Shown here: one piece after another, positions 2,793 to 40,322 of the stretch
How positions within the stretch are numbered: the stretch's first letter is position 1
Layout of the letters: each line of letters opens with the position of its first letter
IMG/VR virus record: IMGVR_UViG_3300019377_000001
Coordinates: 1 to 56,130 of that record
Source of the DNA: a virus
Length of the DNA: 56,130 nucleotides
Reading direction: 5' to 3' (one strand)
The notes under the pieces: model-generated
Told to the model about the DNA's origin: nothing
Databases searched by the model: none
Seen by the model: the letters and a program-made list of their open reading frames with translations, nothing else
Made by a program: the position numbers and the translations under genes

Positions 2793-2793
2793 G

Positions 2794-23378: not shown

Positions 23379-23439
23379 GTCGGGACGGGTTCCCGGACCT
23401 CGTGACAGAACGGTACCACATGCATGTGGGATGAGTGAA
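23379..23439 (-). promoter_or_regulatory. Conserved promoter-operator-leader cassette, copy A
   Basis: Sense strand reads TTCACT-18 nt-TACCGT. Palindrome CCACATGCATGTGG at 23416-23429. Bulged hairpin at 23379-23398. Confidence 0.6.
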
Positions 23440-23469
23440 GCGGCACCCCGGGGTGTACCGGGGTGCCGC
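23440..23469 (-). terminator. Hairpin terminating the unit upstream of cassette A
   Basis: Perfect 12-bp stem GCGGCACCCCGG / CCGGGGTGCCGC. Confidence 0.55.
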
Positions 23470-23479
23470 CGTGGTCGTG

Positions 23480-23785
23480 TCAGCGCAGGCGCAGGGTGCG
23501 GGGCTTGTAGGCGTCCTCGGCCACGCGGTGGACCCGCAGGGCCGCGAGCGCCTCCTTCTTCGCGGCGCGGAGGCCGTCGGCGTTGCCGCTGCCGACGATG
23601 TCGCCGTCGTCGTTCATCGCGGCCCAGCCGCGCACGTTGCTCGCGAGCTGCCAGGACGTCTGGCGGACCTTGGCGCTGATCTCCACGATGCGAGCCCCGG
23701 CGTCGTTGTACCCGTAGGTCTCGCCCTCGAACGTCTCCCACTCGGTGACGGGGGCCTCGGCGGGGGTGGCGGTCTGGGTGGTCAT
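23480..23785 (-). CDS. Hypothetical protein (single-gene unit)
   Basis: 101-aa ORF with its ATG after GGGAGACACC, bracketed by cassette B and a terminator. Confidence 0.7.
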   Translation of the reverse strand: MTTQTATPAEAPVTEWETFEGETYGYNDAGARIVEISAKVRQTSWQLASNVRGWAAMNDDGDIVGSGNADGLRAAKKEALAALRVHRVAEDAYKPRTLRLR

Positions 23786-23805
23786 GGTGTCTCCCGTGGG
23801 ACTGG

Positions 23806-23865
23806 GCCGGGACTGGTTCCCTGGCCGTGTGACTCAACCGTACCACATGCATGTGGGGTTGTGGA
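23806..23865 (-). promoter_or_regulatory. Conserved promoter-operator-leader cassette, copy B
   Basis: Sense strand reads TCCACA-17 nt-TACGGT. Palindrome at 23843-23856. Bulged hairpin at 23806-23825. Confidence 0.6.
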
Positions 23866-23867
23866 GC

Positions 23868-23900
23868 GGGCCCCGATTCCGGATTCCGGAATCGGGGCCC
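23868..23900 (-). terminator. Hairpin terminator
   Basis: Perfect 15-bp stem GGGCCCCGATTCCGG / CCGGAATCGGGGCCC. Confidence 0.55.
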
Positions 23901-23908
23901 GTAGCTCG

Positions 23909-24049
23909 TCAGGGCTGGCTGGCGACTAGGAGGCCGAGCAGCACCAGCACGACGAGCGCGATCGTGAGGCCGGCGCGGAACGACTTCGCCCGCTTGAACA
24001 GGATCATGGCGCCAGCGATGACGGCGATGAACACGAAGAGCTCGTTCAC
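23909..24049 (-). CDS. Small membrane protein (46 aa)
   Basis: The GTG at 24049 overlaps the upstream TGA. VNELFVFIAVIAGAMILF...LTIALVVLVLLGLLVA. Confidence 0.5.
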   Translation of the reverse strand: MNELFVFIAVIAGAMILFKRAKSFRAGLTIALVVLVLLGLLVASQP

Positions 24050-24534
24050 GAGGCGCCCACCAGGGAAGCGAGGATCGTCGTGGCGGCCTTGCGGCGCCGG
24101 TAGGTGTCTACGGCCACCAGGGCGGCGTCGTGGTCGTCCAGGTGCTCGTCCCACACGGCCTGCTCGTCGGCGGGCCAGTCGCGCACGTACTGCGACGCGC
24201 GGACGTCGGGGATCAGCAGCGTGAGCTTCTCGACGTCGAGGCCGGCCAGGATCGCGCTGAACGCCATCCACATCGTGGAGACCGACGCGGCGTCGGGCGT
24301 GAAGTGGCTGCAGTCGCAGTCGGGCTGCCCGACGTACGACATGCACCGGACCTCGTCGGTGCCGGAGTGGCGGGTGTGGCCGTGGGTGCACACGCACGTG
24401 AGCGGGGACGGGTACCCGTCGACGCGGCACACGACGCCGGCCTCGTCGTCGCCGTCGAGCAGGAACTGCTCACGCAGGGCTTCGAGCCGTTCGGTCAGCT
24501 CGTCGGTGGTGGTGCTGGTGGTGGTGTCGCTCAT
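24046..24534 (-). CDS. Hypothetical Cys/His-rich protein
   Basis: 162-aa ORF (MSDTTTSTTTDELTERLEAL...CVCTHGHTRH...CDCSHF). Confidence 0.7.
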   Translation of the reverse strand: MSDTTTSTTTDELTERLEALREQFLLDGDDEAGVVCRVDGYPSPLTCVCTHGHTRHSGTDEVRCMSYVGQPDCDCSHFTPDAASVSTMWMAFSAILAGLDVEKLTLLIPDVRASQYVRDWPADEQAVWDEHLDDHDAALVAVDTYRRRKAATTILASLVGAS

Positions 24535-24559
24535 CGTTCCTCCGTGGTGCTGGTGGTGG

Positions 24560-24721
24560 TCAGGGAAGGGTTCGTGCGAGCAGGTAAAGACCGAGTATCG
24601 CCAGGATCAGGTAGCCGCTGCGCGGCGTGCGCGCCGACCACCAGGCGATCTGGTGGCACACAGCGATCAGGCCGTACAGCACGGCGAACAGCGCCAGGCC
24701 GACGGACAGCGGCTCGATCAC
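24560..24721 (-). CDS. Small membrane protein
   Basis: I trimmed the ORF to the GTG at 24721 (GTGA overlap). VIEPLSVGLALFAVLYGLIAV... Confidence 0.45.
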   Translation of the reverse strand: MIEPLSVGLALFAVLYGLIAVCHQIAWWSARTPRSGYLILAILGLYLLARTLP

Positions 24722-25243: not shown

Positions 25244-25255
25244 CCGGTGAACGCG

Positions 25256-25702
25256 TCAGGCGCGGTAGTACGCACGGATCAGGTCGAACATCTCGGCGGG
25301 GGACGCCGGGCCGACGTGCTCCTCGTCGGGGTCGTCGCTCTCGATGTAGACGCCGACCTCGGCGGTGGCGGCGAAGAAGAACAGGCCGATCTGGTCGACG
25401 CCGTCCTGGTGGAGGAACACGCCGCGGGTGCCGCGGTTGCCGAGGGTGTACTCCTCGATGTGGACGTCGGCGGGCACCAGGCGCTCGATGACACCGGCGG
25501 CGACGATGCCGCGCTCGATGCCGGATGCGAGCGCCGGGTCGTTGAGGACGGCGAGGGCGTCGGGGGAGGGGACCTGGAGGCCGAGCAGGTCGGCCAGGTG
25601 GTCGCCGTCGCGCACGGTGGTGAAGTCGTCCGACGCCTCGAGCGCGAGGATCAGGTCGATGTCGGTGGTGGCCGGGGCGGTGGTGGTCGTGGTGGTGGTC
25701 AC
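25256..25702 (-). CDS. Hypothetical protein
   Basis: I trimmed the ORF to the GTG at 25702, after GGGAGCCACC. 148 aa. It is the first gene behind cassette C. Confidence 0.65.
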   Translation of the reverse strand: MTTTTTTTAPATTDIDLILALEASDDFTTVRDGDHLADLLGLQVPSPDALAVLNDPALASGIERGIVAAGVIERLVPADVHIEEYTLGNRGTRGVFLHQDGVDQIGLFFFAATAEVGVYIESDDPDEEHVGPASPAEMFDLIRAYYRA

Positions 25703-25724
25703 GGTGGCTCCCTGGGGGCTGCGG

Positions 25725-25785
25725 GTCGGGACGTTTTCCCTGACCTCGTGACACGAATCTACCACACGCATGTGGGGGGTACAAA
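25725..25785 (-). promoter_or_regulatory. Conserved promoter-operator-leader cassette, copy C
   Basis: The -10 is TAGATT. Variant palindrome CCACATGCGTGTGG (sense strand) at 25762-25775. Bulged hairpin at 25725-25744. Confidence 0.55.
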
Positions 25786-25841
25786 CGTGCGCGTGGCGCC
25801 CGCGGAGGTTCCGCGGACGCCACGCGCTGGGGCGGTGCTGG

Positions 25842-26507
25842 TCAGGGGTGCAGGGCGGCGAACCTGTTCCGTAGCTCGAGCGCGTGCCGCATGACCTGGT
25901 CCGGGTCGCCAGCCCGGAAGTCGCTGAGGCGCTCGACCTCCACGGACAGGGCCTGGAAGATCCGGGCGACGTCGGTCGGGGTCAACTCGACGCTGACGTT
26001 CGCCTCGGGGCGGCGAAGGTCCGCGACCTCGGCCGTGTGGAACATCTCCCCCACGCGCAGGACGGCGACGCCGGGCTCCATCAGGTGCTGGTAGCGGGCG
26101 ACGCCGGGCACCAGGCCGCCGCGGGTACGGGGGCCGACGTACTCCACGACCTCGCCGTGCCGGTAGGGGTGGGTGACCGGGTGGAGGGGCTCGTGGCGGC
26201 CGACGACGGCGGCGGGCTCGGGCGCGGGGTCGGTTCCCGGCTCGATGAGGCGGACGCGGATCACGACGGGCGAACCGGTGGACGGCGCGAACCGCCACAT
26301 GCCGCCGTTCACGTCGTCGCCGCTGCCGGTCGTGCGGACCACGGCCCACTCGGTGCGGGTCATGGTGGCCTGGGCGGCGTACTCGGCCGCCTGGCGGGCC
26401 GTGCTGGTCTCGTAGCGGCGGACGGGGGCTCCCTCGATGGGCATTCCCTCCCAGTCCACGGCAACGGTCTCGTAGTAGCTCTTGGCGGCCGGGGCGGTGG
26501 TGTTCAC
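25842..26507 (-). CDS. Hypothetical protein (single-gene unit)
   Basis: I trimmed the ORF to the GTG at 26507, after AAGGAGACACC. 221 aa. Confidence 0.65.
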   Translation of the reverse strand: MNTTAPAAKSYYETVAVDWEGMPIEGAPVRRYETSTARQAAEYAAQATMTRTEWAVVRTTGSGDDVNGGMWRFAPSTGSPVVIRVRLIEPGTDPAPEPAAVVGRHEPLHPVTHPYRHGEVVEYVGPRTRGGLVPGVARYQHLMEPGVAVLRVGEMFHTAEVADLRRPEANVSVELTPTDVARIFQALSVEVERLSDFRAGDPDQVMRHALELRNRFAALHP

Positions 26508-26527
26508 GGTGTCTCCTTCGGGTGCGG

Positions 26528-26588
26528 GTCGGGGCGTTTCCCCTGACCTCGTGTTACTACAGTACCACATGCATGTGGGGCGAGTGGA
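26528..26588 (-). promoter_or_regulatory. Conserved promoter-operator-leader cassette, copy D
   Basis: Sense strand reads TCCACT-18 nt-TACTGT. Palindrome at 26565-26578. Bulged hairpin at 26528-26547. Confidence 0.6.
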
Positions 26589-26593
26589 GCGGG

Positions 26594-26619
26594 GCCCGGC
26601 CCCGGGGTGGGGGCCGGGC
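26594..26619 (-). terminator. Hairpin terminator
   Basis: 10-bp stem GCCCGGCCCC / GGGGCCGGGC. Confidence 0.5.
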
Positions 26620-26627
26620 CGGGCGGG

Positions 26628-27047
26628 TCACTTCGCGACGCGGATGTTCCGGCCGACGTTGAGGGTGAACACCTGGGTCACGCCGTCGGAGTCGCGCGTG
26701 AACGCGGTGCGGCGGGTCGGGTCGAGGCGCAGGGTGCGCGGGTCCACGCGGGTGCTGACCGACGTGACGCGGAACCGGCGGCCGTCCTTGTTCACCAGGA
26801 CGTGCCCGGGGCGGACGAGCTCGGCCTTGACGGTCGTCACGTCGCGCTCGGTCGGGGCGGGCTTCGGGGCGTCCGTCGCGTCGGGGAGGTAGACGTTGAA
26901 CGCCTTCACCTTGCGGGCGCGGCCGTTCGCCTTCACGGTCGCCGTGCCGTCGTCGTTGAGGCGGACGAACACGCCGGGGCGCTTGCCGGTGGTGCTGTTG
27001 ACCAGGACGGCGGTACCGGCGGGGGTGGTGGCGGTGGCGTTCTGCAT
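26628..27047 (-). CDS. Hypothetical basic protein (single-gene unit)
   Basis: 139-aa ORF with its ATG after GGGAGTCACC. Confidence 0.7.
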   Translation of the reverse strand: MQNATATTPAGTAVLVNSTTGKRPGVFVRLNDDGTATVKANGRARKVKAFNVYLPDATDAPKPAPTERDVTTVKAELVRPGHVLVNKDGRRFRVTSVSTRVDPRTLRLDPTRRTAFTRDSDGVTQVFTLNVGRNIRVAK

Positions 27048-27068
27048 GGTGACTCCCGTGGTGACTGG

Positions 27069-27129
27069 GTCGGGACTCGTTCCCTGACCTCGTGACAGAA
27101 CAGTACCACATGCATGTGGGGTCTGTGGA
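27069..27129 (-). promoter_or_regulatory. Conserved promoter-operator-leader cassette, copy E
   Basis: Sense strand reads TCCACA-18 nt-TACTGT. Palindrome at 27106-27119. Bulged hairpin GTCAGGGA-ACGAG-TCCCGAC at 27069-27088. Confidence 0.6.
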
Positions 27130-27137
27130 GCGAGGAA

Positions 27138-27162
27138 CGCCCCGCCCGGGGTGGGCGGGGCG
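27138..27162 (-). terminator. Hairpin terminator
   Basis: 9-10-bp stem GCCCCGCCC / GGGCGGGGC. Confidence 0.5.
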
Positions 27163-27173
27163 CTCGGTGGTTG

Positions 27174-27461
27174 TCAGTCCTGGTCGTCGTTGTCGTCCTG
27201 GCGCCAGGTGCCGACGCGAACGTACGTGTCGGTGATCGGGTCGTACGCCTTCACGGTGCCGCTGTCGGCCACGGACGCCCGCAGGGGCTCGCTGCCGTCG
27301 GTCTCACCGGCCAGGGCCCGGGTGACCAGGGCGCGGACGCCCTCGACGCCCCAGGCGTCCACGTGCGACTCGGCGCCGTCGAGCAGCTCCTTGACGAACA
27401 CGACCGCGGCGCGGTCCGTGGCCTTGGCCGGGGTGACCTTGATGCTCGTGTGCGGGGCCAT
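27174..27461 (-). CDS. Hypothetical acidic protein (single-gene unit)
   Basis: I trimmed the ORF to the ATG at 27461, after GGGAAAGCCACC. 95 aa. Confidence 0.65.
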   Translation of the reverse strand: MAPHTSIKVTPAKATDRAAVVFVKELLDGAESHVDAWGVEGVRALVTRALAGETDGSEPLRASVADSGTVKAYDPITDTYVRVGTWRQDDNDDQD

Positions 27462-27482
27462 GGTGGCTTTCCCTTCGTCGTG

Positions 27483-27533
27483 GCCGGGACTGGTTCCCTG
27501 GCCGAACAAGAGAACAGTACCACATGCATGTGG
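27483..27533 (-). promoter_or_regulatory. Conserved promoter-operator-leader cassette, copy F
   Basis: The -10 is TACTGT. The palindrome at 27520-27533 abuts the stop codon of the exonuclease gene. Bulged hairpin at 27483-27502. Confidence 0.55.
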
Positions 27534-27535
27534 GG

Positions 27536-28123
27536 TCAGGCGAGCGAGTCGAGGTACTGCGCCATGACGCGGTTGTACCGGGCGTCCTCCAGGGCGTTGT
27601 GCTCGGTGCCCTCCTGGGCCGGCATCTCGGGGTTGCCTAGCCGGTACGACTCCTGGCGCAGGTCGTTCGTCCACATCGGCACGCCGTCGGGCAGGTCGAT
27701 CATCGGGCCCCAGAGCTGCGCGAGGGCCACGTGGTCGTACGCGCCGTACCAGGCCCACAGCTCGAGGTTCCCCTGCCCCGTGTGCGCCGCGGCCCACAGG
27801 AAGTCGCGGACCTCGTTCGCGATCGACCGGTGAGGCTTCACGGCCGTGCGCGCAGGGTCGAGCTGGATGCTCGCGAGCGCCGTTCGGGTCGCGTTCGTCT
27901 GGCTGTTCAGGTAGCTCTCCAGGGCCGGCTGTGACTCAGGCGTGAGGGGCAGGTGCGGGACGACGTTCCGAACGAGCCAGTCGTGCCGCAGGATGCGGTC
28001 CCACGGGCAGTCGCTGTTGACGGCGTAGTACGCCTGTCCGTCGTCGGTGACGAGCCCGATGGAGATCAGCTCGATGGTCTTCCCGTCCTCGAGGAATTCG
28101 GTGTCATAGAACACGCGTGTCAT
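27536..28123 (-). CDS. DEDDh 3'-5' exonuclease (Rv2179c/RNase T-like)
   Basis: YDTEFLEDG... (Exo I), ...WAWYGAYDHV... (Exo II), ...HNALEDAR (Exo III, DEDDh). Confidence 0.7.
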   Translation of the reverse strand: MTRVFYDTEFLEDGKTIELISIGLVTDDGQAYYAVNSDCPWDRILRHDWLVRNVVPHLPLTPESQPALESYLNSQTNATRTALASIQLDPARTAVKPHRSIANEVRDFLWAAAHTGQGNLELWAWYGAYDHVALAQLWGPMIDLPDGVPMWTNDLRQESYRLGNPEMPAQEGTEHNALEDARYNRVMAQYLDSLA

Positions 28124-28162: not shown

Positions 28163-29110
28163 CTACGGCAGGTCCAGAACGCCCTGCTGGAGCCGGGTGC
28201 GCAGCGACAGGTCGAGGTACTCCTGCTTGAGCTCGATGCCGACGTACCGCCGGCCGTGGCGGGTCGCGGCGAGGCCGGTGGTGCCGGAGCCGCTGAACGG
28301 GTCCAGGACGACGTCGCCGGCGGCGGAGCCGGCCTGGATGCACCGCTCGGGTAGCTCGAGCGGGAACGTCGCGAAGTGGGACCCGGGGAACGGCGTTGTC
28401 GGGATGGCCCACACGTCGCCGGGGTTGCGTCCGCCGGGGTGCAGCGCGCGGGTGGCGTAGCCGCCCTTGCTGGGGTGGTCGTCGCGGTACCCGGAGCGGC
28501 CCTCGTGGCGGGCGCCGCGGGTGTCCTGCGGTTCGCGGATCGCGTCGAGGTCGAACTCGTAGCTCGCGCTCTTGGTGAGCAGGAACAGGTGCTCGTGGCG
28601 GCCGGAGAGCCGGTCGGTCACGGACTCGGGCATGGCGTTGGTCTTGTGCCAGATGATCTCGTTGCGCAGGATCCAGCCGTCGTCCTGCAGGGCGAACGCG
28701 ACCCGCCATGGGATGCCGAGGAGGTTCTTCTCGGGGCGGTCGAAGTCGCGCCGGCGCATCGCGGCCCGTTGCATCTTCTGCACGCGGCCCGGGTTGCTGA
28801 GCCGGGACTTGTCCCAGCCGTTGTCGCTGCCGCGCTGCTTGGTGCTGTAGCTGTCTCCGAGGTTGAGCCAGAGGGTGCCGTCGTCGGCCAGCACGCGGTG
28901 CACCTCGCGGATCACGTCCACGAGGCCGGCGACGAACGCGGCCGGGGAGTCCTCGGAGCCGAGTTGTCCGTCCACGCCGTAGTCGCGGAGCCCGTAGTAC
29001 GGCGGGGAGGTGACGACGCACTGGACGCTGGCGGGCTCGAGCTGGGCCAGGACCGTGGCGGCGTCGCCGTGGTGGAGGGTGATGTGGTCGTCGGCGTAGT
29101 AGGGGGTCAC
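28163..29110 (-). CDS. DNA methyltransferase, SPPY type (N4-cytosine or N6-adenine, beta class)
   Basis: VVTSPPYYGLRDY catalytic motif and C-terminal VLDPFSGSGTTG SAM motif. GTG start at 29110. Confidence 0.8.
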   Translation of the reverse strand: MTPYYADDHITLHHGDAATVLAQLEPASVQCVVTSPPYYGLRDYGVDGQLGSEDSPAAFVAGLVDVIREVHRVLADDGTLWLNLGDSYSTKQRGSDNGWDKSRLSNPGRVQKMQRAAMRRRDFDRPEKNLLGIPWRVAFALQDDGWILRNEIIWHKTNAMPESVTDRLSGRHEHLFLLTKSASYEFDLDAIREPQDTRGARHEGRSGYRDDHPSKGGYATRALHPGGRNPGDVWAIPTTPFPGSHFATFPLELPERCIQAGSAAGDVVLDPFSGSGTTGLAATRHGRRYVGIELKQEYLDLSLRTRLQQGVLDLP

Positions 29111-29350: not shown

Positions 29351-29566
29351 TCAGAGCCGCTTGGCCGCCGCGAGGCAGTGGCGGCACACGGTGTAGCGGT
29401 GGGACTTGGCGTGCTCGGTGGCGTTGAGGATCGCGTCGTGGACGTTCACGTACTCCCCCACGACCCGCATCCGGTCCCCCTTGGCGACGAGGTCCGCGCA
29501 GGGGCTCTGCGCGGCCGTCGTGCCGGTGATGTGGACCTTGGTTCCGTCGGCCTTGACCTCGAACAT
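29351..29566 (-). CDS. Hypothetical protein
   Basis: I trimmed the ORF to the ATG at 29566, after AAGGAGGCACCAC. 71 aa with C-terminal CRHC. Confidence 0.6.
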   Translation of the reverse strand: MFEVKADGTKVHITGTTAAQSPCADLVAKGDRMRVVGEYVNVHDAILNATEHAKSHRYTVCRHCLAAAKRL

Positions 29567-29587
29567 GTGGTGCCTCCTTGGCTCCGG

Positions 29588-29638
29588 GTCGGGACGGTTT
29601 CCCTGACCTCGTACCCCCAGGGTACCACATGCATGTTG
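29588..29638 (-). promoter_or_regulatory. Conserved promoter-operator-leader cassette, copy G
   Basis: The -10 is TACCCT. Variant palindrome CAACATGCATGTGG (sense strand) at 29625-29638. Bulged hairpin at 29588-29607. Confidence 0.5.
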
Positions 29639-29640
29639 GG

Positions 29641-29835
29641 TCATCCGTACGCCTTGCCGCTCTCGCGCACGACGTCGCCCGCGAACTGCGAGATCTCGCC
29701 CTCGTCGCTCGTGGTGAGCATGCCGGTCTGCAAACCGTCGGCGTTGCACACCACGAGGTGCAGCACGCCGTCGCGGTGCACGACATGCACCGTGCACGGT
29801 GCACCGCTGTTGCCGTTCGTCCAGTTCGTGGCCAT
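29641..29835 (-). CDS. Hypothetical protein
   Basis: 64-aa ORF (MATNWTNGNSGAPCTVHVVHRDG...). Confidence 0.6.
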   Translation of the reverse strand: MATNWTNGNSGAPCTVHVVHRDGVLHLVVCNADGLQTGMLTTSDEGEISQFAGDVVRESGKAYG

Positions 29836-29866
29836 GGTCGGTCCCCTTCGGTCGGTGGTGTGCAGG

Positions 29867-31072
29867 TCACGCCATGGCGGCCAGGACGGCGTCCCGGTCG
29901 TTGTACGCGGTGCGCAGCTTCACGTCGTGCCCGGCGGCGAGGAGCGCTTTGTGCACGGCGTCGCCGGTTGCAGTCCGGTTGCTCTGCAGGAAGGCCCGCA
30001 CGACATCGCGGCGCTCCGCGATGCTCGCGCGCTGTGCAGGTGCAATGTGCACGTGCGGGCGGGGCAGGTCTGCAACGATCGCGGCGGCCTCACGCTGCAC
30101 AGCCTCTGCAACCCGGGCGGCGTACGCCTCGTCCTGCACAACGTCGGGCTGTGCAGGCGGGGCCTGCACCGTTGCAACCTGGGTTGCATGTGCAACGGCC
30201 TGCACGCCGTCGTGCACGTGCACCTCGGGTGCAGGTGCAACCGGCTGCACACTGGTCTGCACGTGCACCTCGGGTGCAGGTGCAACGGGTGCTGCAAGTG
30301 CAGGTGCAGGTGCACCGGTGGTGAGGTCGGCCTGCATCCGCTGTGCAGTCCGTGCAGCGATCGTCGCGACGGACACCCGGACCTCCTCGCCGTAGCGGGC
30401 TGACTCGAGCCAGGCGCCGAGCTGGGCGTCGCGCTCGTCCTGGGGGACGTGCTTCGCGATCGCTCGGGCGGCCCGTCGTGCCCGCTGTGCGGCCAGCGGG
30501 GCGAGCCAGGTGCCGTTCGCCAGGCCCTCGGCCTCGCCCGCCTTGAAGAACGCGTACAGGAGGCCGTGACGGCGCTCCGCGGCACGGTGGGCGCGGTGCC
30601 GCCCGCCGCAGAACAGGTGGATCACCAGCTCCCACAGCCCGGCGGCGAGGAACGGGGCGAACAGGCGCCACCCGGCGGACGCCAGGGCGGCCGACAGGCT
30701 GAGGTCCCCGGACAGGTACTCCATGACCTCGAACAGGGCGCCGAACACGCCGGAGACGCCCGACAGGACCCAGGTCGCGGTGCGGAACAGGGCGGTCGGC
30801 TGCATGCGGTACGCCTCGATGAACGTCGCCGCGGCGACGACGGCGAGCGAGAGCTCGATGACGCCGCCGAACACGTAGCTCGTCACCTCGGAGAGCTGCA
30901 TGACGTTGCGGGCGAACGCGACGCCGCCGATGTACGCGGCGCCGTTCGCGACGACGGCGACGAGCAGCACGGCCGCGGTCAGGGCGATCAGGAGCCGGCG
31001 GATCACGGGCGGCTCGGGGTCGGTGGCGAGATGTGCAGGTGCAACGGGCGTGGTGGTGTGGTCGGTGTGCAC
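29867..31072 (-). CDS. Multi-pass membrane protein, DUF2637-like (as in actinomycete conjugative elements), with a repetitive Ala/Pro/Val/His/Gln C-terminal half
   Basis: 401 aa with a GTG start. About 4 N-terminal TM helices, then ...VAPAPEVHVQTSVQP VAPAPEVHVHDGVQA... encoded by the TGCA array. Confidence 0.75.
   Translation of the reverse strand: MHTDHTTTPVAPAHLATDPEPPVIRRLLIALTAAVLLVAVVANGAAYIGGVAFARNVMQLSEVTSYVFGGVIELSLAVVAAATFIEAYRMQPTALFRTATWVLSGVSGVFGALFEVMEYLSGDLSLSAALASAGWRLFAPFLAAGLWELVIHLFCGGRHRAHRAAERRHGLLYAFFKAGEAEGLANGTWLAPLAAQRARRAARAIAKHVPQDERDAQLGAWLESARYGEEVRVSVATIAARTAQRMQADLTTGAPAPALAAPVAPAPEVHVQTSVQPVAPAPEVHVHDGVQAVAHATQVATVQAPPAQPDVVQDEAYAARVAEAVQREAAAIVADLPRPHVHIAPAQRASIAERRDVVRAFLQSNRTATGDAVHKALLAAGHDVKLRTAYNDRDAVLAAMA
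29941..30370 (+). repeat. TGCA-hexamer array 1 (inside the 3' half of gene 29867..31072)
   Basis: I counted about 32 TGCA in about 420 nt by hand. GTGCAGGTGCA(A/G/C) occurs at 30034, 30229, 30274, 30298 and 30304. A 29-bp perfect direct repeat lies at 30213-30241 and 30258-30286. Confidence 0.85.
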
Positions 31073-31095
31073 GGGCTGTCCTCTCTGTGCAGGCG

Positions 31096-31156
31096 GTCGG
31101 GACTCGTTCCCTGACCTGGTGTGTGCACGCTACCACATGCATGTGGGGGTTGTGCA
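31096..31156 (-). promoter_or_regulatory. Conserved promoter-operator-leader cassette, copy H
   Basis: Sense strand reads TGCACA-18 nt-TAGCGT. Palindrome at 31133-31146. Bulged hairpin at 31096-31115. Confidence 0.55.
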
Positions 31157-31272
31157 GGGGGTGTGCAACGGCGTGTTACGGATGCACGTCTGCGACCTGC
31201 ACTTTTGCACTTGCAACTCGGGGTGCACGTGCAGGTGCACGACGGCGTGCACCCGGCGGGTTGCATGCAAGA

Positions 31273-31303
31273 GGGCCCGCTGCACGTGATGTGCAACGGG
31301 CCC
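31273..31303 (-). terminator. Hairpin after gene 31327..31569
   Basis: GGGCCCG / CGGGCCC stem followed on the sense strand by TCTTGC. Confidence 0.4.
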
Positions 31304-31326
31304 CTGGTTCTGCAGCTATGCGTGCA

Positions 31327-32249: not shown

Positions 32250-32597
32250 TCAGTGGTGGCGCTGCTCGCGGATGCGGGCCTTCTTGCCGCGTAGCTCGCG
32301 CAGGTAGTAGAGCTTCGCGCGGCGCACGACGCCGCGGCGCACGACCTCGATGGACTCGATCGACGGCGTGTGGAGCGGGAACTTCCGCTCGACGCCGGCG
32401 CCGAAGCTGATCTTGCGGACGGTGAACGTCTCACCGACGCCGCGGCCGTGCCGCGCGATGACGACGCCCTGGAACGCCTGGACGCGGGTCCGTTCGCCCT
32501 CGGTGACCTTGACGTTCACGCGGACCGTGTCGCCGGCCCGGAAGTCGGGGATGTCGGTGCGCATCGAGTCGGTGTCGATGGTGTCGAGCTTCTGCAT
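32250..32597 (-). CDS. rplS: Ribosomal protein bL19 homologue
   Basis: Full-length match to the L19 pattern: ...[18 protein letters not shown].+.[10 protein letters not shown]....[35 protein letters not shown]. Confidence 0.85.
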
Positions 32598-34958: not shown

Positions 34959-35339
34959 TCAGAACAGCGTTCCCTGTTCCGGCACGTCGTCGGGCCACGA
35001 CCCGGCGGCGGTGTAGTCCGTGTCCTCGAGGTCCCACACCTCGCCCGTGTCGAGGTCGGTGACCTCGTCCAGGTGGCAGCCGGGGCAGCGGCGCACGACG
35101 AGCCGGACGTGCGGGTACAGGTCCGCGACGCCGGCGCCCGGCATGAGCGTGCCGACGGCGCGTAGCTCGCTGTCGCGGATCCACCCGCACCCCGTGCAGG
35201 CCCAGTGGTCGGCCGGGACGTGGAACACGAGCGTCGTGCGGCCCGCGAGGCCGGCCTCGTCGGTCCAGTCCGACCACTGCACCGGCCGCCCGTCCCACAG
35301 CGGCGGCAGGTCGTGTGGGCGGGCGGGCGGCGTCACCAC
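34959..35339 (-). CDS. Zinc-ribbon protein
   Basis: I trimmed the ORF to the GTG at 35339, 1 nt after the upstream stop. CTGCG...CPGC. Confidence 0.5.
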   Translation of the reverse strand: MVTPPARPHDLPPLWDGRPVQWSDWTDEAGLAGRTTLVFHVPADHWACTGCGWIRDSELRAVGTLMPGAGVADLYPHVRLVVRRCPGCHLDEVTDLDTGEVWDLEDTDYTAAGSWPDDVPEQGTLF

Positions 35340-35340
35340 G

Positions 35341-36734: not shown

Positions 36735-36930
36735 TGCGGGATGCTCCCTTGTTCGGGGAGTGACGTTGCCCGCGTTGTCCGGTATAGTGGTACCCGGAGT
36801 TTCGCGAGTGGTCTGGTCACTCGTGAGGCTGAGGCCGTCCCTCTGCCAGGAGGGGCGGCCTCACTTGTGTGTGGGAACCATACCTCTGCATGTACCGGTT
36901 GACGAGCAAGGCCGGGTGTGGCGCGTCCAG

Positions 36931-36991
36931 TTGCGCTGGTCCCACATGCGTGTGGTACTGTTCTATCACGAGGTCAGGGAAAAGTCCCGAC
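36931..36991 (+). promoter_or_regulatory. Conserved promoter-operator-leader cassette, copy I (plus strand)
   Basis: TTGCGC-19 nt-TACTGT. Palindrome CCACATGCGTGTGG at 36942-36955. Bulged hairpin at 36973-36991. Confidence 0.6.
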
Positions 36992-37011
36992 CCGGAGCCA
37001 CGGAGGCAAGC

Positions 37012-37536
37012 ATGCCAAGCATCATCCGTCCCACGGACTACAGCGACCACGAGTCGAGCACCCGCACCCTCGGTGCGTGGGACCCGGCCACCCTCAAGCG
37101 CCTGGTGCCGTTCCTCGCCGGGCAGCGCGTGATCGTCGTCACCGACCGCGGCAACGGCCACGCCGTCGAGGGCTACGTCGTCGGGATCCAGGAGGCCACC
37201 GCCCGCTCGGACTACCCGCACATCGTCATGGCCGACACCCCGGACGACAGCCTCAAGCGGCTGCACCGGGTGTCCGACCTCGGGGAGATCATGCTCCTCA
37301 CCGACAGCAACGCCCGCTGGAGCCTGCACACCGCGATCCACCACGAGACCGGTGCGGCGCTGAAGGCGGTCCGTCAGTTCCTCGGCACCGACTTCCCGCC
37401 CGGGGCGCCGTACAAGGGCCCGCGTCGGTGGACCACGACCCTGTCGTGGAGCGGCGTGCGGGTCGGGTGGGGCGAGTCCTACCGCGACCGCCGGTGGTTC
37501 GTGGACACCAAGGGCAACGTCCGCGAGTACGCCTGA
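37012..37536 (+). CDS. Hypothetical protein
   Basis: I trimmed the ORF to the ATG at 37012, after a CGGAGGCAAGC SD. 174 aa. Confidence 0.7.
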   Translation: MPSIIRPTDYSDHESSTRTLGAWDPATLKRLVPFLAGQRVIVVTDRGNGHAVEGYVVGIQEATARSDYPHIVMADTPDDSLKRLHRVSDLGEIMLLTDSNARWSLHTAIHHETGAALKAVRQFLGTDFPPGAPYKGPRRWTTTLSWSGVRVGWGESYRDRRWFVDTKGNVREYA

Positions 37537-37615
37537 TCTGCCGGTGCGGCCCGGCCTGGGGTCACCCCCGGGCCGCACCTGGCTACCCACCCACCACACA
37601 CGGAACGAGGACACC

Positions 37616-38245
37616 ATGCCTGACCTGCACATCACCATCGCGATCCCCGGCTCCTGGGACGCGCACGTGTGCGACGCGAACTGCGACTGCCCCCGGGCCC
37701 TCGCCCGGACCCAGACCGCGATCGACGCCGCCCGTGTCGAGGACGGCCGCGAGCCGCGCCCGCTGAGCAAGCGCCTGCACGCCATGCGGCACGCGACCCC
37801 CGACCCCGAGTGGTTCGACGTCGTGTCGTTCCAGGCGCAGCAGCTCGAAGACCTCGCCGCCCTGCAGCACCGCGACACCACCGCCGGGACACAGGCCGCC
37901 GACTGGGCCGCGACGCAGGACGCCGCCGACGCCGCGACACCGACCCAGCGTCGGGACATGCTGCGCGACGCGATCGCCGCCACCGTCCGCGACCTCGAGC
38001 GCGCCGAGCTGCTGCCCGTCACGCACGAGTACGTTCACGACCCCCGCGCGGAGATCTCCCGCGTCTACGCCGGGACCCAGGTGTTCGCCGCGGAGATGAC
38101 CGGCAAGCTCGACACCCCGGCCGCGCACTACGTCGTCACGACGTCCGACGAGGTGGACGACGACGCCGCGACCGAGCGGTTCACGACCGACCTGAACGCG
38201 GTACGCGCCTGGCTCCTCGCCTGGGCGTGCGCACCGCGCCACTAG
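37616..38245 (+). CDS. Hypothetical protein
   Basis: I trimmed the ORF to the ATG at 37616 (MPDLHITIAIPGSWDAHVCDANCDCP...). 209 aa. Confidence 0.65.
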   Translation: MPDLHITIAIPGSWDAHVCDANCDCPRALARTQTAIDAARVEDGREPRPLSKRLHAMRHATPDPEWFDVVSFQAQQLEDLAALQHRDTTAGTQAADWAATQDAADAATPTQRRDMLRDAIAATVRDLERAELLPVTHEYVHDPRAEISRVYAGTQVFAAEMTGKLDTPAAHYVVTTSDEVDDDAATERFTTDLNAVRAWLLAWACAPRH

Positions 38246-38296
38246 CTGCACCACCCGCACCACCCACATAACCCACCACCAGGAAGGAAACCCGCC

Positions 38297-38449
38297 ATGT
38301 CCGGATGGGGACAGCGAGACGAGACGACCCGCGAGGAGCGCGCGAGCTGGAAGAAGCGCGCCGAGGAGCAGATGGCCGAGCAGAACGGCGAGGGCGACGA
38401 GCAGGAGCAGCCCGAGCAGAAGCACCGCCGCGCACGACGACCCCAGTAG
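38297..38449 (+). CDS. Small charged protein (50 aa); below the ORF-track size cutoff
   Basis: AGGAAGGAAA SD, then MSGWGQRDETTREERASWKKRAEEQMAEQNGEGDEQEQPEQKHRRARRPQ. A hairpin follows. Confidence 0.5.
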   Translation: MSGWGQRDETTREERASWKKRAEEQMAEQNGEGDEQEQPEQKHRRARRPQ

Positions 38450-38469
38450 GTTCCTGACGCAGTCTCTCG

Positions 38470-38500
38470 CCCACCAGCCGCACCCCGTGCGGCTGGTGGG
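38470..38500 (+). terminator. Hairpin after the 50-aa ORF
   Basis: Perfect 14-bp stem CCCACCAGCCGCAC / GTGCGGCTGGTGGG. Confidence 0.5.
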
Positions 38501-38548
38501 CGGGGGAGTCCAGCAGGTACCCCACACGCCCAGAAAGGCACCCACCTG

Positions 38549-39064
38549 ATGACCGACACCACCACTCCGACCACCGGCGCCGAGCCCGAAGAGGTCACCG
38601 CGGGCTGGCTGTTCATGACCGCGAACGCCCTCGGCCTGTCCGACGCGGACCTCGCGTACGTCCTCGACGTGCGACCCGACACCCTGCGCAAGCACTGGAA
38701 GTTCGGCACACAGCCCGTGCCCGACGGCGTCCGCGCCGACCTGCAGCAGTTCATCGAATTCACCGACGCGTGCGTGGACGTCCTCGTGTCCCGCGCCGAG
38801 GACATGGACGAGCCCGCGATCATCGTCTACGGCAACCTCCGCGACGTGCCCGAGGGCCACATGGCCGCGACGTACGGCATCACCTGGTGGGACCACGTCG
38901 CCTTCTCCACGAAGAAGCTCGTCCCCGAGGTGTACATCGGGTACGTCGCGGAGGTCGCGATGGCGTACGACTACTCCGCCGGCGTGATCGACGCCGTGCA
39001 CGAGGACCCCTCCGTACTCGCGCTGCACGCCCGCAGCACCGAACGCCAGCGCACCCGCTCGTGA
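38549..39064 (+). CDS. Hypothetical protein
   Basis: 171-aa ORF with normal composition. Confidence 0.7.
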   Translation: MTDTTTPTTGAEPEEVTAGWLFMTANALGLSDADLAYVLDVRPDTLRKHWKFGTQPVPDGVRADLQQFIEFTDACVDVLVSRAEDMDEPAIIVYGNLRDVPEGHMAATYGITWWDHVAFSTKKLVPEVYIGYVAEVAMAYDYSAGVIDAVHEDPSVLALHARSTERQRTRS

Positions 39065-39198
39065 CACAACGAGGCCCCCAGCACGGTGATGCTGGGGGCC
39101 TCACTGATGGCCCGAGGGGGATCCAAGGGTTCGACGGTGTCGAGGCGTCGACACGGCCAGCATAGAGCCGGCCACCGACGCGCGCGCCCGGTCGTAGC

Positions 39199-39471
39199 TC
39201 ACCCGCTCCGGCGGGACTGCTGCACCAGGTACGTGGACGCCTCGAACCCTAGGATCTCCGCGTTGTCCCCGGGGAACTCCGCCAGCCGCGCCAGCGCCCG
39301 CATCATCCGCACCCACTGCGACGGGTGCCGTGTGCGGGCCGCCGGCGGCAGCCGGGGGAACGAGTCCACTGGGCCACCGTCGGCCGGCCGGTGGGTGTCC
39401 CCGAACGGCGTTGCCTTCACGTAGCGCGCGAGGGCCTCGGCCAGCTCGTCGTGTTCGGTCACGGTACCCAC
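39199..39471 (-). CDS. Hypothetical protein, divergent from 39545..39898
   Basis: 90-aa ORF with a GTG start and a TGA stop. It is the only minus-strand gene in the plus-strand block. Confidence 0.6.
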   Translation of the reverse strand: MGTVTEHDELAEALARYVKATPFGDTHRPADGGPVDSFPRLPPAARTRHPSQWVRMMRALARLAEFPGDNAEILGFEASTYLVQQSRRSG

Positions 39472-39544
39472 CCCGTTTCGCGTTATCGCATTCCAGGAAA
39501 AGCCAGCATAATTCTCAAACCATTACACAATAACGGTGAGGTAA
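39472..39544. promoter_or_regulatory. AT-rich divergent control region
   Basis: This is the most AT-rich 73 nt of the window (...cgttatcgcattccaggaaaagccagcataattctcaaaccattacacaataacggtgaggtaa). It contains the inverted pair CGTTAT/ATAACG. Confidence 0.5.
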
Positions 39545-39898
39545 ATGCATATCGAAGGACCTGGCCCGATCCTTTCCTGCGATCACGCCACCCACACAGA
39601 CGAGCAGCTACTCGAATGCCTGGCCCGGCAATGGAACGTGACCGTCCCCCAGCTCGTCGCGATGCTCGCCGCCCTCGTGTTCGCCCACACCGAACGCACC
39701 GCGACGGCAGAGGCCGCACGCGCCGGCACCAGCACCCTCCTGCCGGCCCTGCCCGTCAGGTCCTGCGACTGGTGCCACCGACCCCTACCCGCACGCACCC
39801 ACCACAGCCGCCGCTACTGCCCGGACGCCGACTGCAAACGGCTGGCGTACAACGCCTGGCAGCGCGACGGCCGACCACCCCGAAAGGTCCACCAGTGA
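39545..39898 (+). CDS. Hypothetical protein with a C-terminal Cys4-type motif (possible DNA-binding regulator)
   Basis: 117 aa with ...CDWCHRPLP...RRYCPDADCKRLAYNAWQR. Confidence 0.6.
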   Translation: MHIEGPGPILSCDHATHTDEQLLECLARQWNVTVPQLVAMLAALVFAHTERTATAEAARAGTSTLLPALPVRSCDWCHRPLPARTHHSRRYCPDADCKRLAYNAWQRDGRPPRKVHQ

Positions 39899-40140
39899 AC
39901 CTGCACCCGCTCGCCGTCCTGATCGTCATCCTGTTCGTGTTCCTCGCCGTCGTCGCGGCACGGTTCGCGATCCTCGACGCCCGCGCCGACCGAGCCCACC
40001 AGCGCTGGCTGCGCCGCAACGAGCTACACCGACGCCGCACCCAGGTAGCGGTCAAGGGCATCCGGTACGGGTACCGCGGCGCCGGCCTCGACGGCCAGGC
40101 TGACCACCCCGACGCACTGCGGAAGAACACGCGCCCGTAG
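39895..40140 (+). CDS. Single-pass membrane protein
   Basis: The GTG at 39895 overlaps the upstream TGA. VNLHPLAVLIVILFVFLAVVAARF... Confidence 0.5.
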   Translation: MNLHPLAVLIVILFVFLAVVAARFAILDARADRAHQRWLRRNELHRRRTQVAVKGIRYGYRGAGLDGQADHPDALRKNTRP

Positions 40141-40261
40141 CTGCACGCAGAAGAGCCCCCACCCTCCGGCACGCGAGGGTGGGGGCTCACCCCTGTGGAA
40201 CGCACGTTTGCGACAACGCACCACCGATCCTACCCACCCCCGCCGGGGCCCCATGCCCGTG

Positions 40262-40322
40262 TTGAGCCGTCCCACATGCGTGTGGTACTGTTGTCTTGTT
40301 CGGCCAGGGAACCAGTCCCGGC
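40262..40322 (+). promoter_or_regulatory. Conserved promoter-operator-leader cassette, copy J (plus strand)
   Basis: TTGAGC-18 nt-TACTGT. Palindrome CCACATGCGTGTGG at 40272-40285. Bulged hairpin at 40303-40322. Confidence 0.6.

Follow-up and report, generated by a model that had tools for sequence, protein, structure and literature searches.

A repeated promoter, operator and RNA-hairpin module precedes ten transcription units of a soil actinophage, with an Aca2-like protein as candidate binder

In IMGVR_UViG_3300019377_000001 (56,130 nt, the whole of which was analysed and is called the window here), an ~85-base control module precedes ten transcription units. Its parts are, in order, a promoter, a 14-bp palindromic operator, a 5′ RNA hairpin and a ribosome site. 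A sequence-only reading had claimed ten repeated cassettes and proposed to align them and build a covariance model. The whole-cassette model, run across the window, finds exactly ten full copies at 80-102 bits, and the next match scores 13.6 bits. The phage is an uncultivated soil actinophage with a 56-kb, siphovirus-like genome, and all ten copies lie in its non-structural region. Every cassette points the same way as the gene it precedes and stands at a fixed distance from the start codon. The palindrome, CCACATGCRTGTGG, is present at each of the ten places reported. The positions given earlier mark different parts of the module: the low ends of the hairpins on the minus strand and the -35-like positions on the plus strand (36931, 40262).

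Cassettes A to H are on the minus strand. Cassette A (23355..23440, 90.6 bits) has a -35-like element at 23435-23440, the palindrome at 23416-23429, the -10 TACCGT at 23410-23415, a predicted +1 at 23403 and a hairpin with a bulged C at 23378-23399, followed by the ATG (23355-23357) of an 84-aa gene (23103-23357). Cassette B (23783..23867, 93 bits) has its palindrome at 23843-23856, the -10 TACGGT, a predicted +1 at 23830, a GGCC/GGCC variant of the hairpin at 23805-23826 and the ATG (23783-23785) of a 101-aa gene (23480-23785). The palindrome of cassette C (25700..25786, 86.1 bits), at 25762-25775, is CCACATGCGTGTGG; the -10 TAGATT, a predicted +1 at 25749, the hairpin at 25724-25745 and a GTG at 25700-25702 follow, and the operon runs from 25702 down to ~23909. 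Cassette D (26505..26589, 90.6 bits) comprises the palindrome (26565-26578), the -10 TACTGT, a predicted +1 at 26552, a GGGG/CCCC variant of the hairpin (26527-26548) and a GTG (26505-26507), then a 221-aa gene. The same -10 serves cassette E (27045..27130, 102.4 bits; palindrome 27106-27119, predicted +1 27093, hairpin 27068-27089, ATG 27045-27047), which precedes a 139-aa gene, and cassette F (27459..27544, 90.5 bits; palindrome 27520-27533, predicted +1 27507, hairpin 27482-27503, ATG 27459-27461), with a 95-aa gene next.

Cassette G (29564..29649, 80.8 bits) has the palindrome at 29625-29638, the -10 TACCCT, a predicted +1 at 29612, the hairpin at 29587-29608 and an ATG at 29564-29566. Its operon holds a 71-aa gene, an N6/N4 DNA methylase (28163-29110) and an Rv2179c-like exoribonuclease (27536-28123). 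Cassette H (31070..31157, 81.4 bits; palindrome 31133-31146, -10 TAGCGT, predicted +1 31120, hairpin 31095-31116, GTG 31070-31072) precedes a 401-aa gene (29867-31072) that bears a cassette in six related contigs too. On the plus strand, cassette I (36931..37014, 82 bits) begins with a -35-like TTGCGC (36931-36936), continues with the palindrome (36942-36955), the -10 TACTGT (36956-36961), a predicted +1 at 36968, the hairpin (36972-36992) and an ATG (37012-37014), and heads a rightward arm (37012-39064). Cassette J (40261..40346, 93.5 bits), with the palindrome at 40272-40285, the -10 TACTGT, a predicted +1 at 40298, the hairpin at 40302-40323 and an ATG at 40344-40346, leads an operon of a 71-aa gene, an exonuclease (40623-41411) and an Erf-like annealing protein (41411-42091).

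The single-gene units described at 23480-23785, 25842-26507, 26628-27047 and 27174-27461 each close, as had been seen, with a strong hairpin that directly precedes the next cassette. The hairpin at 23441..23471 (minus strand) ends unit B before cassette A (fold of 23435-23504, -34.7 kcal/mol). Terminator-like hairpins also precede cassettes B (within 23862-23931, -42.0 kcal/mol), C (25781-25850, -41.8 kcal/mol), D (26584-26653, -38.8 kcal/mol) and E (27125-27194, -32.4 kcal/mol). A simple terminator scan misses the A-E hairpins because none has a U-tract. Upstream of cassettes F and G there is no hairpin; there the preceding gene's stop codon adjoins the palindrome (TGACC-palindrome), the TGA being that of the exoribonuclease-like gene for F and of gene H for G.

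Related metagenomic phages, where a search had been suggested, yielded 45 distinct cassette copies; column conservation was counted over 34 copies and gene families over 43 cassettes. The -10 assignments hold as listed (TACTGT five times; TACCGT, TACGGT, TAGATT, TACCCT and TAGCGT once each). Across the 34 copies, T40, A41 and T45 of the TANNNT element are invariant and the middle three bases vary freely, TG stands just upstream, and the base 7 nt downstream of the -10 (column 52, the predicted +1) is always a purine, which together bear out a promoter layer. The weakness ascribed to the -35 stands; as for its place, conservation is highest in a -35-like hexamer 19 nt before the -10, which is TTGCAC-like in relatives. 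The initially transcribed sequence CAC(G/C)AGG is conserved. The GGGAG-N-CACC Shine-Dalgarno (SD) block proposed for every copy is found in only about four, with GGAGG, AAGGAG, GGGAAAG or AGAGAGG elsewhere.

The palindrome is perfectly symmetric over 14 bp, of the form CCAC-N6-GTGG, and abuts the -10, for which it provides the TG. It is exact in nine of the ten copies, copy G being CAACATGCATGTGG; CCACATGCRTGTGG has 23 strand-matches at ≤2 mismatches against 1.23 expected. A perfectly symmetric site that fills the spacer is as expected for a dimeric protein. The more distant relative L026, whose Aca2-like protein has diverged, retains the -10, hairpin and SD and swaps only the inverted repeat, with GCATnACC-N6/7-GGTRTGC in place of CCAC-N6-GTGG. 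Both points favour the dimer-operator layer suggested earlier. Co-variation of operator and helix-turn-helix (HTH) is based on two lineages only.

The hairpin occupies +5 to +26 in all ten minimum-energy folds, leaves the SD largely free, and is the sole structure that RNAalifold predicts. Its stem has 8 bp (GGYC/GRCC plus GGGR/YCCC), one pair more than first written. The bulged A, thought to occur in all ten, is present in nine, copy A having C (GGTC-C-GGGA), and in 32 of 34 copies family-wide; the loop begins with A in 30/34 and ends with G in 34/34. Over the 45 copies, stem pairing holds in 99.7% of 360 cells (97.8% on an independent MAFFT alignment), with 22 compensatory cells in three of the eight pairs and eight U-G cells. 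The eight U-G pairs fit only the sense RNA. Compensatory and U-G changes lend weight to the proposed second layer of control on the hairpin. Its sequence bears no likeness to the operator half-site.

As a sign of selection on the cassette, its core retains 82-98% identity between phages that share 63-90% in the adjacent coding sequence. At least 24 protein families sit behind the 43 cassettes; between relatives, inter-cassette genes are replaced and cassettes retained. None of the cassette-driven genes was recognised as a known anti-CRISPR or anti-defence gene. Altogether, comparative evidence supports reading the cassette as a putative promoter, operator and RNA hairpin.

Which protein might bind it? 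The sequence-only reading saw none evident among the annotated genes. We find a candidate operator-binding, possibly hairpin-binding, protein of 171 aa (38549..39064, plus strand) with an Aca2/YdiL-like HTH and a dimerisation domain. Its gene is the last on the strand downstream of cassette I, is followed by a terminator hairpin (~39070-39103), and has a counterpart in every long relative with cassettes. Foldseek matches its AF2 model (pLDDT 79) best to Aca2 (7ezy, 7vjp, 7b5j, 7vjq; probability 1.0, TM 0.64-0.68), with a best E-value of only 1.6e-3. The protein itself falls below every Pfam threshold and has no PDB sequence or profile match; its family profile finds remote relatives, 50 of 60 of which carry PF08965 Aca2_YdiL, and hhalign gives 99.7% probability (E 3e-25). 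Through these intermediates and the predicted model, the protein most likely belongs to the Aca2 family. Residues 15-60, the HTH segment, are nearly invariant across 24 homologues, alongside an invariant operator.

The three candidates named before are not favoured on module, fold and motif evidence: 19271-19510 lies in a separate HTH / membrane protein / FtsK-like module, a block conserved in L015; 39545-39898, conserved and with invariant Cys/His residues grouped in two clusters that may be zinc sites, gives a model without a fold match; and 39199-39471 has no detectable DNA-binding motif.

No cassette lies directly upstream of the Aca2-like gene. A very strong GC hairpin does (38462..38510, plus strand; fold of 38446-38550, -61 kcal/mol), ~40 nt before the gene, and six relatives have hairpins of -40 to -61 kcal/mol at the same position. 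It may act as a leaky terminator or attenuator through which repressor is made in small amounts or late. Autoregulation would therefore require read-through.

From the anatomy, conservation pattern, RNA covariation, and protein family and fold, we infer start sites, binding partners, direction of regulation and early timing as follows. The cassettes are probably early modules, with the Aca2-like protein the most likely binder, shutting the set down. Each would be a self-contained expression unit read by host housekeeping-sigma RNA polymerase, the extended -10 (TGG-TANNNT) doing most of the promoter work beside a weak -35, and transcription starting at the purine 7 nt downstream. The mRNA would then begin with four free bases and an 8-bp hairpin that carries the bulged A and has a loop closed by A...G; some 20 bases without structure would lead from it to a strong SD and the start codon. 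A dimer on CCAC-N6-GTGG, at -26 to -13, would exclude polymerase. The ten promoters would fire on phage entry, and repressor made at a low level, by read-through from cassette I past the strong hairpin, would accumulate and silence together ~24 interchangeable small-gene families, the DNA methylase, the exoribonuclease-like gene and the exo/Erf recombination genes. The hairpin would add a post-transcriptional layer, bound by the same protein (compare Aca2 and Aca1 on 5′-UTR hairpins) or stabilising the 5′ end. Its lack of likeness to the operator half-site and its constancy in L026, where the operator differs, would suit another partner, or one from the host, no less well than the same HTH. 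A MerR-like, activating mode would also be compatible with the 19-nt spacer and weak -35.

An alternative with the same anatomy, unlikely though worth serious weight, has another factor on the palindrome (the Cys/His-cluster protein 39545-39898, a CxxC protein at 34959-35339, or a host regulator) and a protein-free hairpin as 5′-terminal stabiliser against RNase E or RNase J. Both phage proteins are also family-conserved (72-74% and 87% identity), the hairpin is unchanged under the L026 operator swap, and it begins 4 nt from the predicted 5′ end, the protective geometry known from ompA, ermC and other 5′ stem-loop stabilisers. But the 39545-39898 model matches no DNA-binding fold, a host factor would not explain an operator that differs between related phages while the rest is kept, and a passive stabiliser needs no invariant bulged A, loop G or GGG/CCC; the Aca2-like protein already suits the role in fold, dimer geometry and conservation pattern. 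It is improbable that the cassettes are instead recombination boundaries or selfish mobile elements shuffling gene modules with no dedicated regulatory role, to an even greater degree than for the readings below. Genes are swapped between retained cassettes and the phage has exo/Erf recombination genes, but TA...T, the +1 purine and compensatory stem changes indicate selection on function, not just identity, and orientation is matched to the downstream gene with start-codon distance fixed. The exchange of modules is more likely a by-product of the repeats than the reason for them.

Antiterminator loading at the promoter is very doubtful: a Q-like factor would bind the spacer DNA, as the lambda Q-binding element sits between the -35 and -10 of PR′, or the nascent hairpin would act as nut/boxB or put, letting polymerase pass the strong hairpins between units. 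Each unit ends in such a hairpin with the next cassette immediately after, and the initially transcribed sequence is conserved. Yet units with ten promoters of their own need no read-through, boxB has a GNRA-like pentaloop that this loop is not, put has two hairpins and the cassette one, a Q-, N- or similar protein was looked for in the phage and not found, and the protein evidence favours an Aca2-type repressor. Somewhat less doubtful, though still improbable, is that the cassette is no promoter but a start-associated translation or processing element inside long read-through transcripts, its palindrome and hairpin being RNA-processing or ribosome-loading signals. The model would be SAS/ESAS of Cluster K mycobacteriophages (PMC3203893) and also Cluster EF phages (PMC7302621), whose genomic placement is similar. 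The fixed position relative to start codons, an SD-containing block conserved beyond SD need, and cassettes F and G standing directly after a stop codon without a terminator agree with this. However, the invariant T, A and T around a free NNN, the upstream TG and the +7 purine form a sigma region 2 pattern that an RNA site would not require, RNAalifold predicts no structure for the palindrome, which also lacks covariation, five cassettes come right after terminator-like hairpins of -32 to -42 kcal/mol, and the cassette departs from the SAS consensus GGGATAGGAGCCC.

The preferred reading, an Aca2-like repressor acting on ten early modules, has its paradigm in the Aca2 family, in which a DNA operator is combined with 5′-UTR hairpin control, the targets being a 14-bp promoter inverted repeat and 5′-UTR hairpins (PMC6765145, PMC13551039). 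Aca2 binds a TTCG-N6-CGAA inverted repeat overlapping its own promoter (PMC6765145); CCAC-N6-GTGG has the same 4-N6-4 geometry. In the architecture of PMC13551039, the DNA motif overlaps the promoter, the transcription start lies 10-15 nt downstream of it, the RNA motif follows directly and the start codon has a fixed position; here the start is predicted 12 nt after the palindrome. Aca2 binds two hairpins, whereas this phage's cassette has one. The layout resembles the anti-CRISPR regulator circuit extended to genome scale, with one probable switch over ten promoters.

The 14-bp palindrome CCACATGCRTGTGG, the proposed operator, gives 23 strand-matches in the window against about 1.2 expected, at the ten cassettes (A–H on the minus strand, I and J on the plus strand) and essentially nowhere else. 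The 130-nt segments around all ten copies align without difficulty. A covariance model of the cassette, built from 34 distinct copies, gives these ten 80–102 bits, against 13.6 bits for the best of all other sites; given this gap the cassette is all-or-none, neither the hairpin nor the palindrome being found alone. A weak match of the model at 19157–19245 was rejected as a cassette. In every copy a start codon in the same orientation follows downstream, 70–74 nt away when counted from the palindrome's first base. Cassettes A–E are preceded by hairpins of −32 to −42 kcal/mol; cassettes F and G abut the stop codon of the preceding gene.

Palindrome search and covariance model both return the ten cassettes placed by a sequence-only reading of this DNA. 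The alignment and model it had proposed recover these copies and reveal covariation in the hairpin, which, together with the conservation pattern of the −10 element, bears out the essence of its interpretation. Some details are amended. The hairpin is present and pairs, but its stem is one pair longer than written, and copy A carries C at the bulge, where A had been assigned to all ten. The Shine-Dalgarno (SD) block, described as GGGAG(N)CACC, has the agreeing consensus GGGAGaCACC, but varies among copies. The −35-like element is weak, as described, and lies 19 nt from the −10, where a spacer of 17–19 nt had been given.

The T, A and T of the −10 element TANNNT are kept in 34 of 34 copies, and the three middle bases take many values. 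TGG stands directly upstream of it in every one of these copies, and a purine always lies about 6–7 positions past its final T. This pattern indicates a housekeeping-sigma −10, with the TG of the palindrome as extended −10 and a purine start, and is unlike what an RNA processing site would require. With A−11, T−7 and an extended TGn, the element has the form expected of a sigma-A/HrdB-type actinobacterial promoter. No TTGACA-like −35 is found at 16–18 nt: the region is weakly T-rich, one column having T in 23 of 34 copies, and the best −35-like hexamer is TTGCAC-like and spaced 19 nt. The extended −10 could compensate for this weak −35. A generic promoter scan of the window called no cassette. 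Promoters of a phage RNA polymerase, T7-like or of the N4 hairpin type, were rejected, as no RNA polymerase gene was found and the conservation is that of a sigma −10.

The leader hairpin starts four bases past the predicted transcription start (+5) and is the sole structure predicted by RNAalifold. It forms in all ten minimum-energy folds, with the SD largely unpaired. In a MAFFT alignment 97.8% of the stem cells pair, the six unpaired cells being due to two misaligned rows; in a model-guided alignment of 45 copies the figure is 99.7%. Compensatory changes are seen in three of the eight pairs (22 cells: G–C to A–U, U–A to C–G, A–U to C–G or G–C). Eight U–G cells in the stem would be A–C mismatches on the other strand, and in slid controls pairing falls to 19–69%. 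The hairpin thus belongs to the sense transcript, as an RNA structure. The unpaired bases are kept as well: the bulged A in 32 of 34 copies, A as first loop base in 30 and G as last loop base in all 34, which argues for recognition by a partner over mere stability. In all ten copies the start codon lies 19–22 nt past the hairpin, and the +1, placed by prediction, 12 nt past the palindrome. A search of Rfam 15 with cassette E gave no match at the gathering score or at E ≤ 10, and Rfam holds no family for the element.

The composite pattern was absent from 185,579 species-representative genomes, with no prophage or host copies, and present in one 55.7-kb IMG/VR contig and 17 soil metagenome contigs. 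Additional loci were gathered through homologues of one window protein, for a total of 45 distinct cassettes; searches for related loci with Rep alone or with the 79-aa HTH protein alone gave no confirmed loci. Beside orthologous cassettes the coding DNA is 63–90% identical to the window, and the cassette core 82–98%. Between relatives genes get replaced and cassettes stay, with at least 24 unrelated protein families downstream of 43 cassettes. Column by column the palindrome is almost invariant: its right half TGTGG is fully so, and its left half tolerates CCACA to CAACA. A shortened palindrome in the related locus L019 was discarded, this being a noisy long-read assembly with frameshifts in its Aca2-like gene. 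The literal palindrome sequence was not found in the literature searched.

The sequence-only reading had seen no evident binding protein, and our scans of the small early proteins for known families gave nothing. A candidate has nonetheless emerged in the Aca2/YdiL-like product of 38549–39064 (plus strand, 171 aa). Its HTH-like segment is almost identical in the related contig L002, the whole proteins being only 65% identical. All 44 homologues found come from the same metagenomic phage family, and residues 15–60 are nearly invariant in 24 of them; INPHARED contains no homologue. An AlphaFold2 model of the protein (pLDDT 79, pTM 0.71) has Aca2 as its best Foldseek matches (7ezy, 7vjp, 7b5j and the Aca2–DNA complex 7vjq), over 121 of 124 target columns with a TM of 0.64–0.68 and a probability of 1.0, followed by the YdiL-type structures 2ox6 and 1s4k. 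A profile search of 1.8 billion representatives returned 107 relatives. Pfam PF08965 (Aca2/YdiL-like) is found in 50 of 60 remote relatives, with which a profile–profile comparison by hhalign gives 99.7% probability over 128 columns. The window protein alone falls below the Pfam threshold and has no match in a PDB sequence search, so that family membership rests on the fold and on intermediates. From model and profiles, the protein is predicted to have an Aca2_YdiL domain, with an N-terminal HTH and Aca2-type dimerisation. The cassette-driven genes show no match to known Acr or anti-defence families in Pfam, PHROGs and NCBIfam; one cassette operon carries a DNA methylase, and most of these genes are ORFans.

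A related locus, L026, encodes P0074, a more diverged member of this 170-aa Aca2-like family. Its recognition helix reads HPDTIRRRWEYG, versus RPDTLRKHWKFG in the window protein and a family consensus of RPDTIRKNWKYG. L026 has four cassettes at 2290–4588 (plus strand), in which TANNNT, the CAC(G/C)AGG start region, the hairpin and the SD are all kept. The spacer holds GCATnACC-N6/7-GGTRTGC in place of the palindrome, and the −35 is better (TTGCAT, 18-nt spacer). The spacer element is thus the lineage-specific part, changing together with the candidate protein. This speaks against a host factor, and against a need of the polymerase, as the reason for the element, and indirectly supports the Aca2-like protein as its binder. 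The hairpin is the constant part; its partner could be the Aca2-like protein itself, through a conserved surface, a second conserved protein of the phage, or host machinery.

The Aca2-like gene is without a cassette of its own. It is the last gene on its strand downstream of cassette I (palindrome 36942–36955), and a terminator hairpin follows it. Between cassette I and the gene stands a very strong GC hairpin without a U-tract (38462–38510, plus strand), about 40 nt upstream of the gene, in a region that folds at −61 kcal/mol. Hairpins of −40 to −61 kcal/mol occupy the matching position in all six relatives examined (L002, L020, L022, L023, L024 and L026). The 38462–38510 hairpin may be an attenuator setting the repressor level. 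The Aca2-like protein would then be made at a low level, by read-through past this hairpin, and shut-off would be delayed.

A further element, at 36760–36875 (plus strand), lies where the Rep-like gene and cassette I diverge, and recurs in the related contigs L002 (843–980) and L022 (7331–7398). It consists of a promoter-like GTGACG-17-TATAGT and a segment of about 80 nt with two strong hairpins (−50.7 kcal/mol), is 90–96% conserved in relatives and shows a compensatory change in the second stem. It may represent a small RNA or a transcript that primes an origin. The conserved small transcript of about 36795–36875 was rejected as an antisense partner of the cassette leaders, to which it has no complementarity: its duplex energies do not exceed those of shuffled controls (z about 0). 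Adjoining the Rep-like gene, 34959–35339 (minus strand) encodes a 126-aa protein with two CxxC pairs, at 87–88% identity to relatives among the most conserved early proteins, for which no family or structural assignment was obtained.

Around cassette H, motifs of the TGCAC/GTGCA type cluster at 29745–31340, mainly on the minus strand, with 17 of the 31 TGCACA matches of the window. They lie upstream of the cassette, in its leader and within the 401-aa gene behind it (29867–31072, minus strand), a pattern repeated in relatives; in L001 the H operator is preceded, at 4 bp, by a second near-palindrome, ACACATGCATGTGC. These motifs could serve as iterons or as additional binding sites. Just upstream of cassette J, 39199–39898 is a second, non-cassette control point: a divergent gene pair around an unusually AT-rich intergenic region (39472–39544) that is conserved in L019, L016 and L022. 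The pair encodes a 90-aa protein (minus strand) and a protein of 117 aa in which two Cys/His clusters are invariant (C12, H14, H17, C25 and C74, C77, C92, C97).

The window has a G+C content of about 70%. Genes for the large terminase, portal, major capsid protein, tape measure and minor tail proteins lie on the minus strand and span the window ends; this structural gene set and its run across the ends indicate a complete or nearly complete siphovirus-like phage genome. The non-structural genes form a leftward arm, from 36734 down to about 22416, and a rightward arm at 36916–42533. A separate plus-strand module (19271–22323), conserved in L015 (3741–6789), sits between oppositely oriented genes and is similar to the conjugative Tra modules of actinomycetes; it encodes a small coiled-coil/HTH protein of 79 aa, a membrane protein with four TM segments and an FtsK/SpoIIIE-HerA-like ATPase of 734 aa. 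Other genes encode tRNA-Leu(AAG) (792–868, minus strand), two N6/N4 DNA methylases and a SAM-methyltransferase-like protein (11044–12351, 28163–29110, 55656–56129), a HIT-family hydrolase (16651–17019) and a protein with a sub-threshold match to Pfam Stealth_CR2 (13019–13954; 35.9 bits against a cutoff of 39.4). A full-length gene for ribosomal protein bL19 is found in the early region (32250–32597, minus strand; Pfam PF01245, E 1.9e-49), and is a recent insertion since its syntenic position is empty in the relatives L017 and L003. As a partner of the leader hairpin bL19 was rejected, the gene being missing syntenically in cassette-bearing relatives and the Rfam search giving no L19-leader match. 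In the window proteins scanned we detected no integrase, CI-like repressor, sigma factor or RNA polymerase. There is no close cultured phage: megablast gives short Gordonia phage fragments only, and for the major capsid protein the identity to capsids of Gordonia, Microbacterium and Arthrobacter phages is about 30%.

Could the operator be bound by a different protein, with the hairpin as a passive stabiliser of the 5′ end? We consider this possible, though less probable. The product of 39545–39898, with its two Cys/His clusters, had been listed as a candidate binder by the sequence-only reading, and was rejected because its structure model gave no informative fold match; a pure stabiliser would leave the invariant unpaired bases of the hairpin unexplained. 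A translation element without promoter function would have its model in the SAS and ESAS repeats of Cluster K mycobacteriophages (PMC3203893) and Cluster EF Microbacterium phages (PMC7302621). SAS is the 13-bp asymmetric GGGATAGGAGCCC, 3–7 bp before the start codon, and ESAS are inverted repeats without RNA pairing (PMC3203893). Like the cassettes, they are intergenic, present in 10–19 copies in the non-structural half only, with an upstream inverted repeat; they share one orientation, end a few bases before start codons with an over-conserved SD, and are conserved across subclusters ahead of differing gene families. Unlike them, the cassettes have a covarying hairpin and a canonical −10 with TG between palindrome and hairpin; their consensus is GGGAGaCACC, their upstream repeat pairs as RNA, and sequence similarity is lacking. 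This reading is unlikely because of the −10 pattern and the terminator-like hairpins upstream (PMC3203893).

We give antitermination loading a minor place. The hairpin lacks the features of a terminator, boxB or put element: it is followed by CCAGTCACC-type sequence and not by a U-tract, its loop is A-N-N-N-G with a variable middle and not a GNRA-like pentaloop, and it is single, where put has two. A purely recombinational role of the repeats is likewise a minor possibility.

A bolder reading, of rather low probability, would make the Aca2-like protein the master switch for almost all accessory early genes of this phage lineage, acting twice on each of the ten units: on the palindrome as DNA and on the lineage-wide constant hairpin as RNA. 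The finding itself is real, and the functional steps are predicted from sequence. Repeated intergenic motifs occur in many actinophage clusters, mostly without a mechanism. What distinguishes the present case is that −10, operator, +1, RNA hairpin and SD can all be read off, and that the named candidate regulator comes from a family shown elsewhere to bind promoter DNA and 5′-UTR RNA. If the bolder reading is true, about 24 interchangeable ORFan families behind the cassettes would make a ready-marked catalogue of actinophage anti-defence and host-takeover genes. Confirmation of the candidate regulator would widen the reach of Aca-type control: seen in one or a few anti-CRISPR operons, it would then extend to an early regulon of ten promoters in high-GC phages. 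Metagenomic actinophages could be searched for early or anti-defence genes by a simple sequence tag, and actinobacterial engineering would gain a compact insulated cassette (terminator, promoter, operator, 5′ hairpin and RBS).

Phage phiC31 reportedly has early promoters and conserved inverted repeats bound by its c repressor. Its promoters and inverted repeats are reported to be separate elements, with promoters that are not sigma-HrdB-like. What the two have in common is a large number of near-identical promoters in the early region of an actinophage, and a repressor, here a candidate, for a conserved inverted repeat at many sites; unlike in phiC31, operator, −10, hairpin and SD are joined here in a unit of fixed layout, and neither an integrase nor a c-like repressor was found in the window. 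Cluster A stoperators, the sites of L5 gp71, are 13-bp asymmetric sequences that halt elongation and have no fixed link with a −10 (PMC3203893). They too are many short sites across a genome for one phage repressor, the binder here being a candidate; unlike them, the present site is symmetric and placed at −26 to −13 of each promoter.

Aca2 and Aca1 are anti-CRISPR-associated HTH autoregulators with paired DNA and 5′-UTR RNA motifs, as stated in PMC6765145 and in PMC13551039, which cites Birkholz et al., Nature 2024. In phage ZF40 (acrIF8-aca2), dimeric Aca2 represses its own strong promoter via TTCG-N6-CGAA, which overlaps it (PMC6765145); our palindrome is likewise a 14-bp inverted repeat of 4-N6-4 layout (CCAC-N6-GTGG) overlapping a strong promoter. 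Aca operons have a DNA motif that overlaps the promoter, a TSS 10–15 nt downstream and a conserved start-codon position (PMC13551039), comparable to the predicted TSS 12 nt past our DNA motif, the hairpin at +5 and the fixed distance to the start codon. The RNA target of Aca1 is described as a single hairpin that comes directly past the TSS and stops about 20 nt short of the start codon; its lower stem is conserved, its upper stem covaries, and one or two of its bases are unpaired (PMC13551039). The leader hairpin shares the kept lower stem, unpaired base, covarying upper stem and spacing of about 20 nt, and the regulated genes are again small, diverse, early ORFans. Unlike acr-aca2 loci, the window has no known acr gene. 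Among known systems, Aca-type dual control of DNA and RNA comes closest, the RNA motif being matched by its published description. Ours appears to be a variant in four respects. Ten motif pairs in one genome, where up to three are reported near one Aca regulator (PMC13551039), would control most of the accessory early genes; in place of the two hairpins of Aca2 there is one, which is unrelated to the operator and does not resemble its half-site; the candidate regulator gene, unlike in acr-aca2, where it directly follows an acr gene, is distal, 1.6 kb downstream of the promoter and behind a strong, attenuator-like hairpin; and the operator seems exchangeable between lineages.
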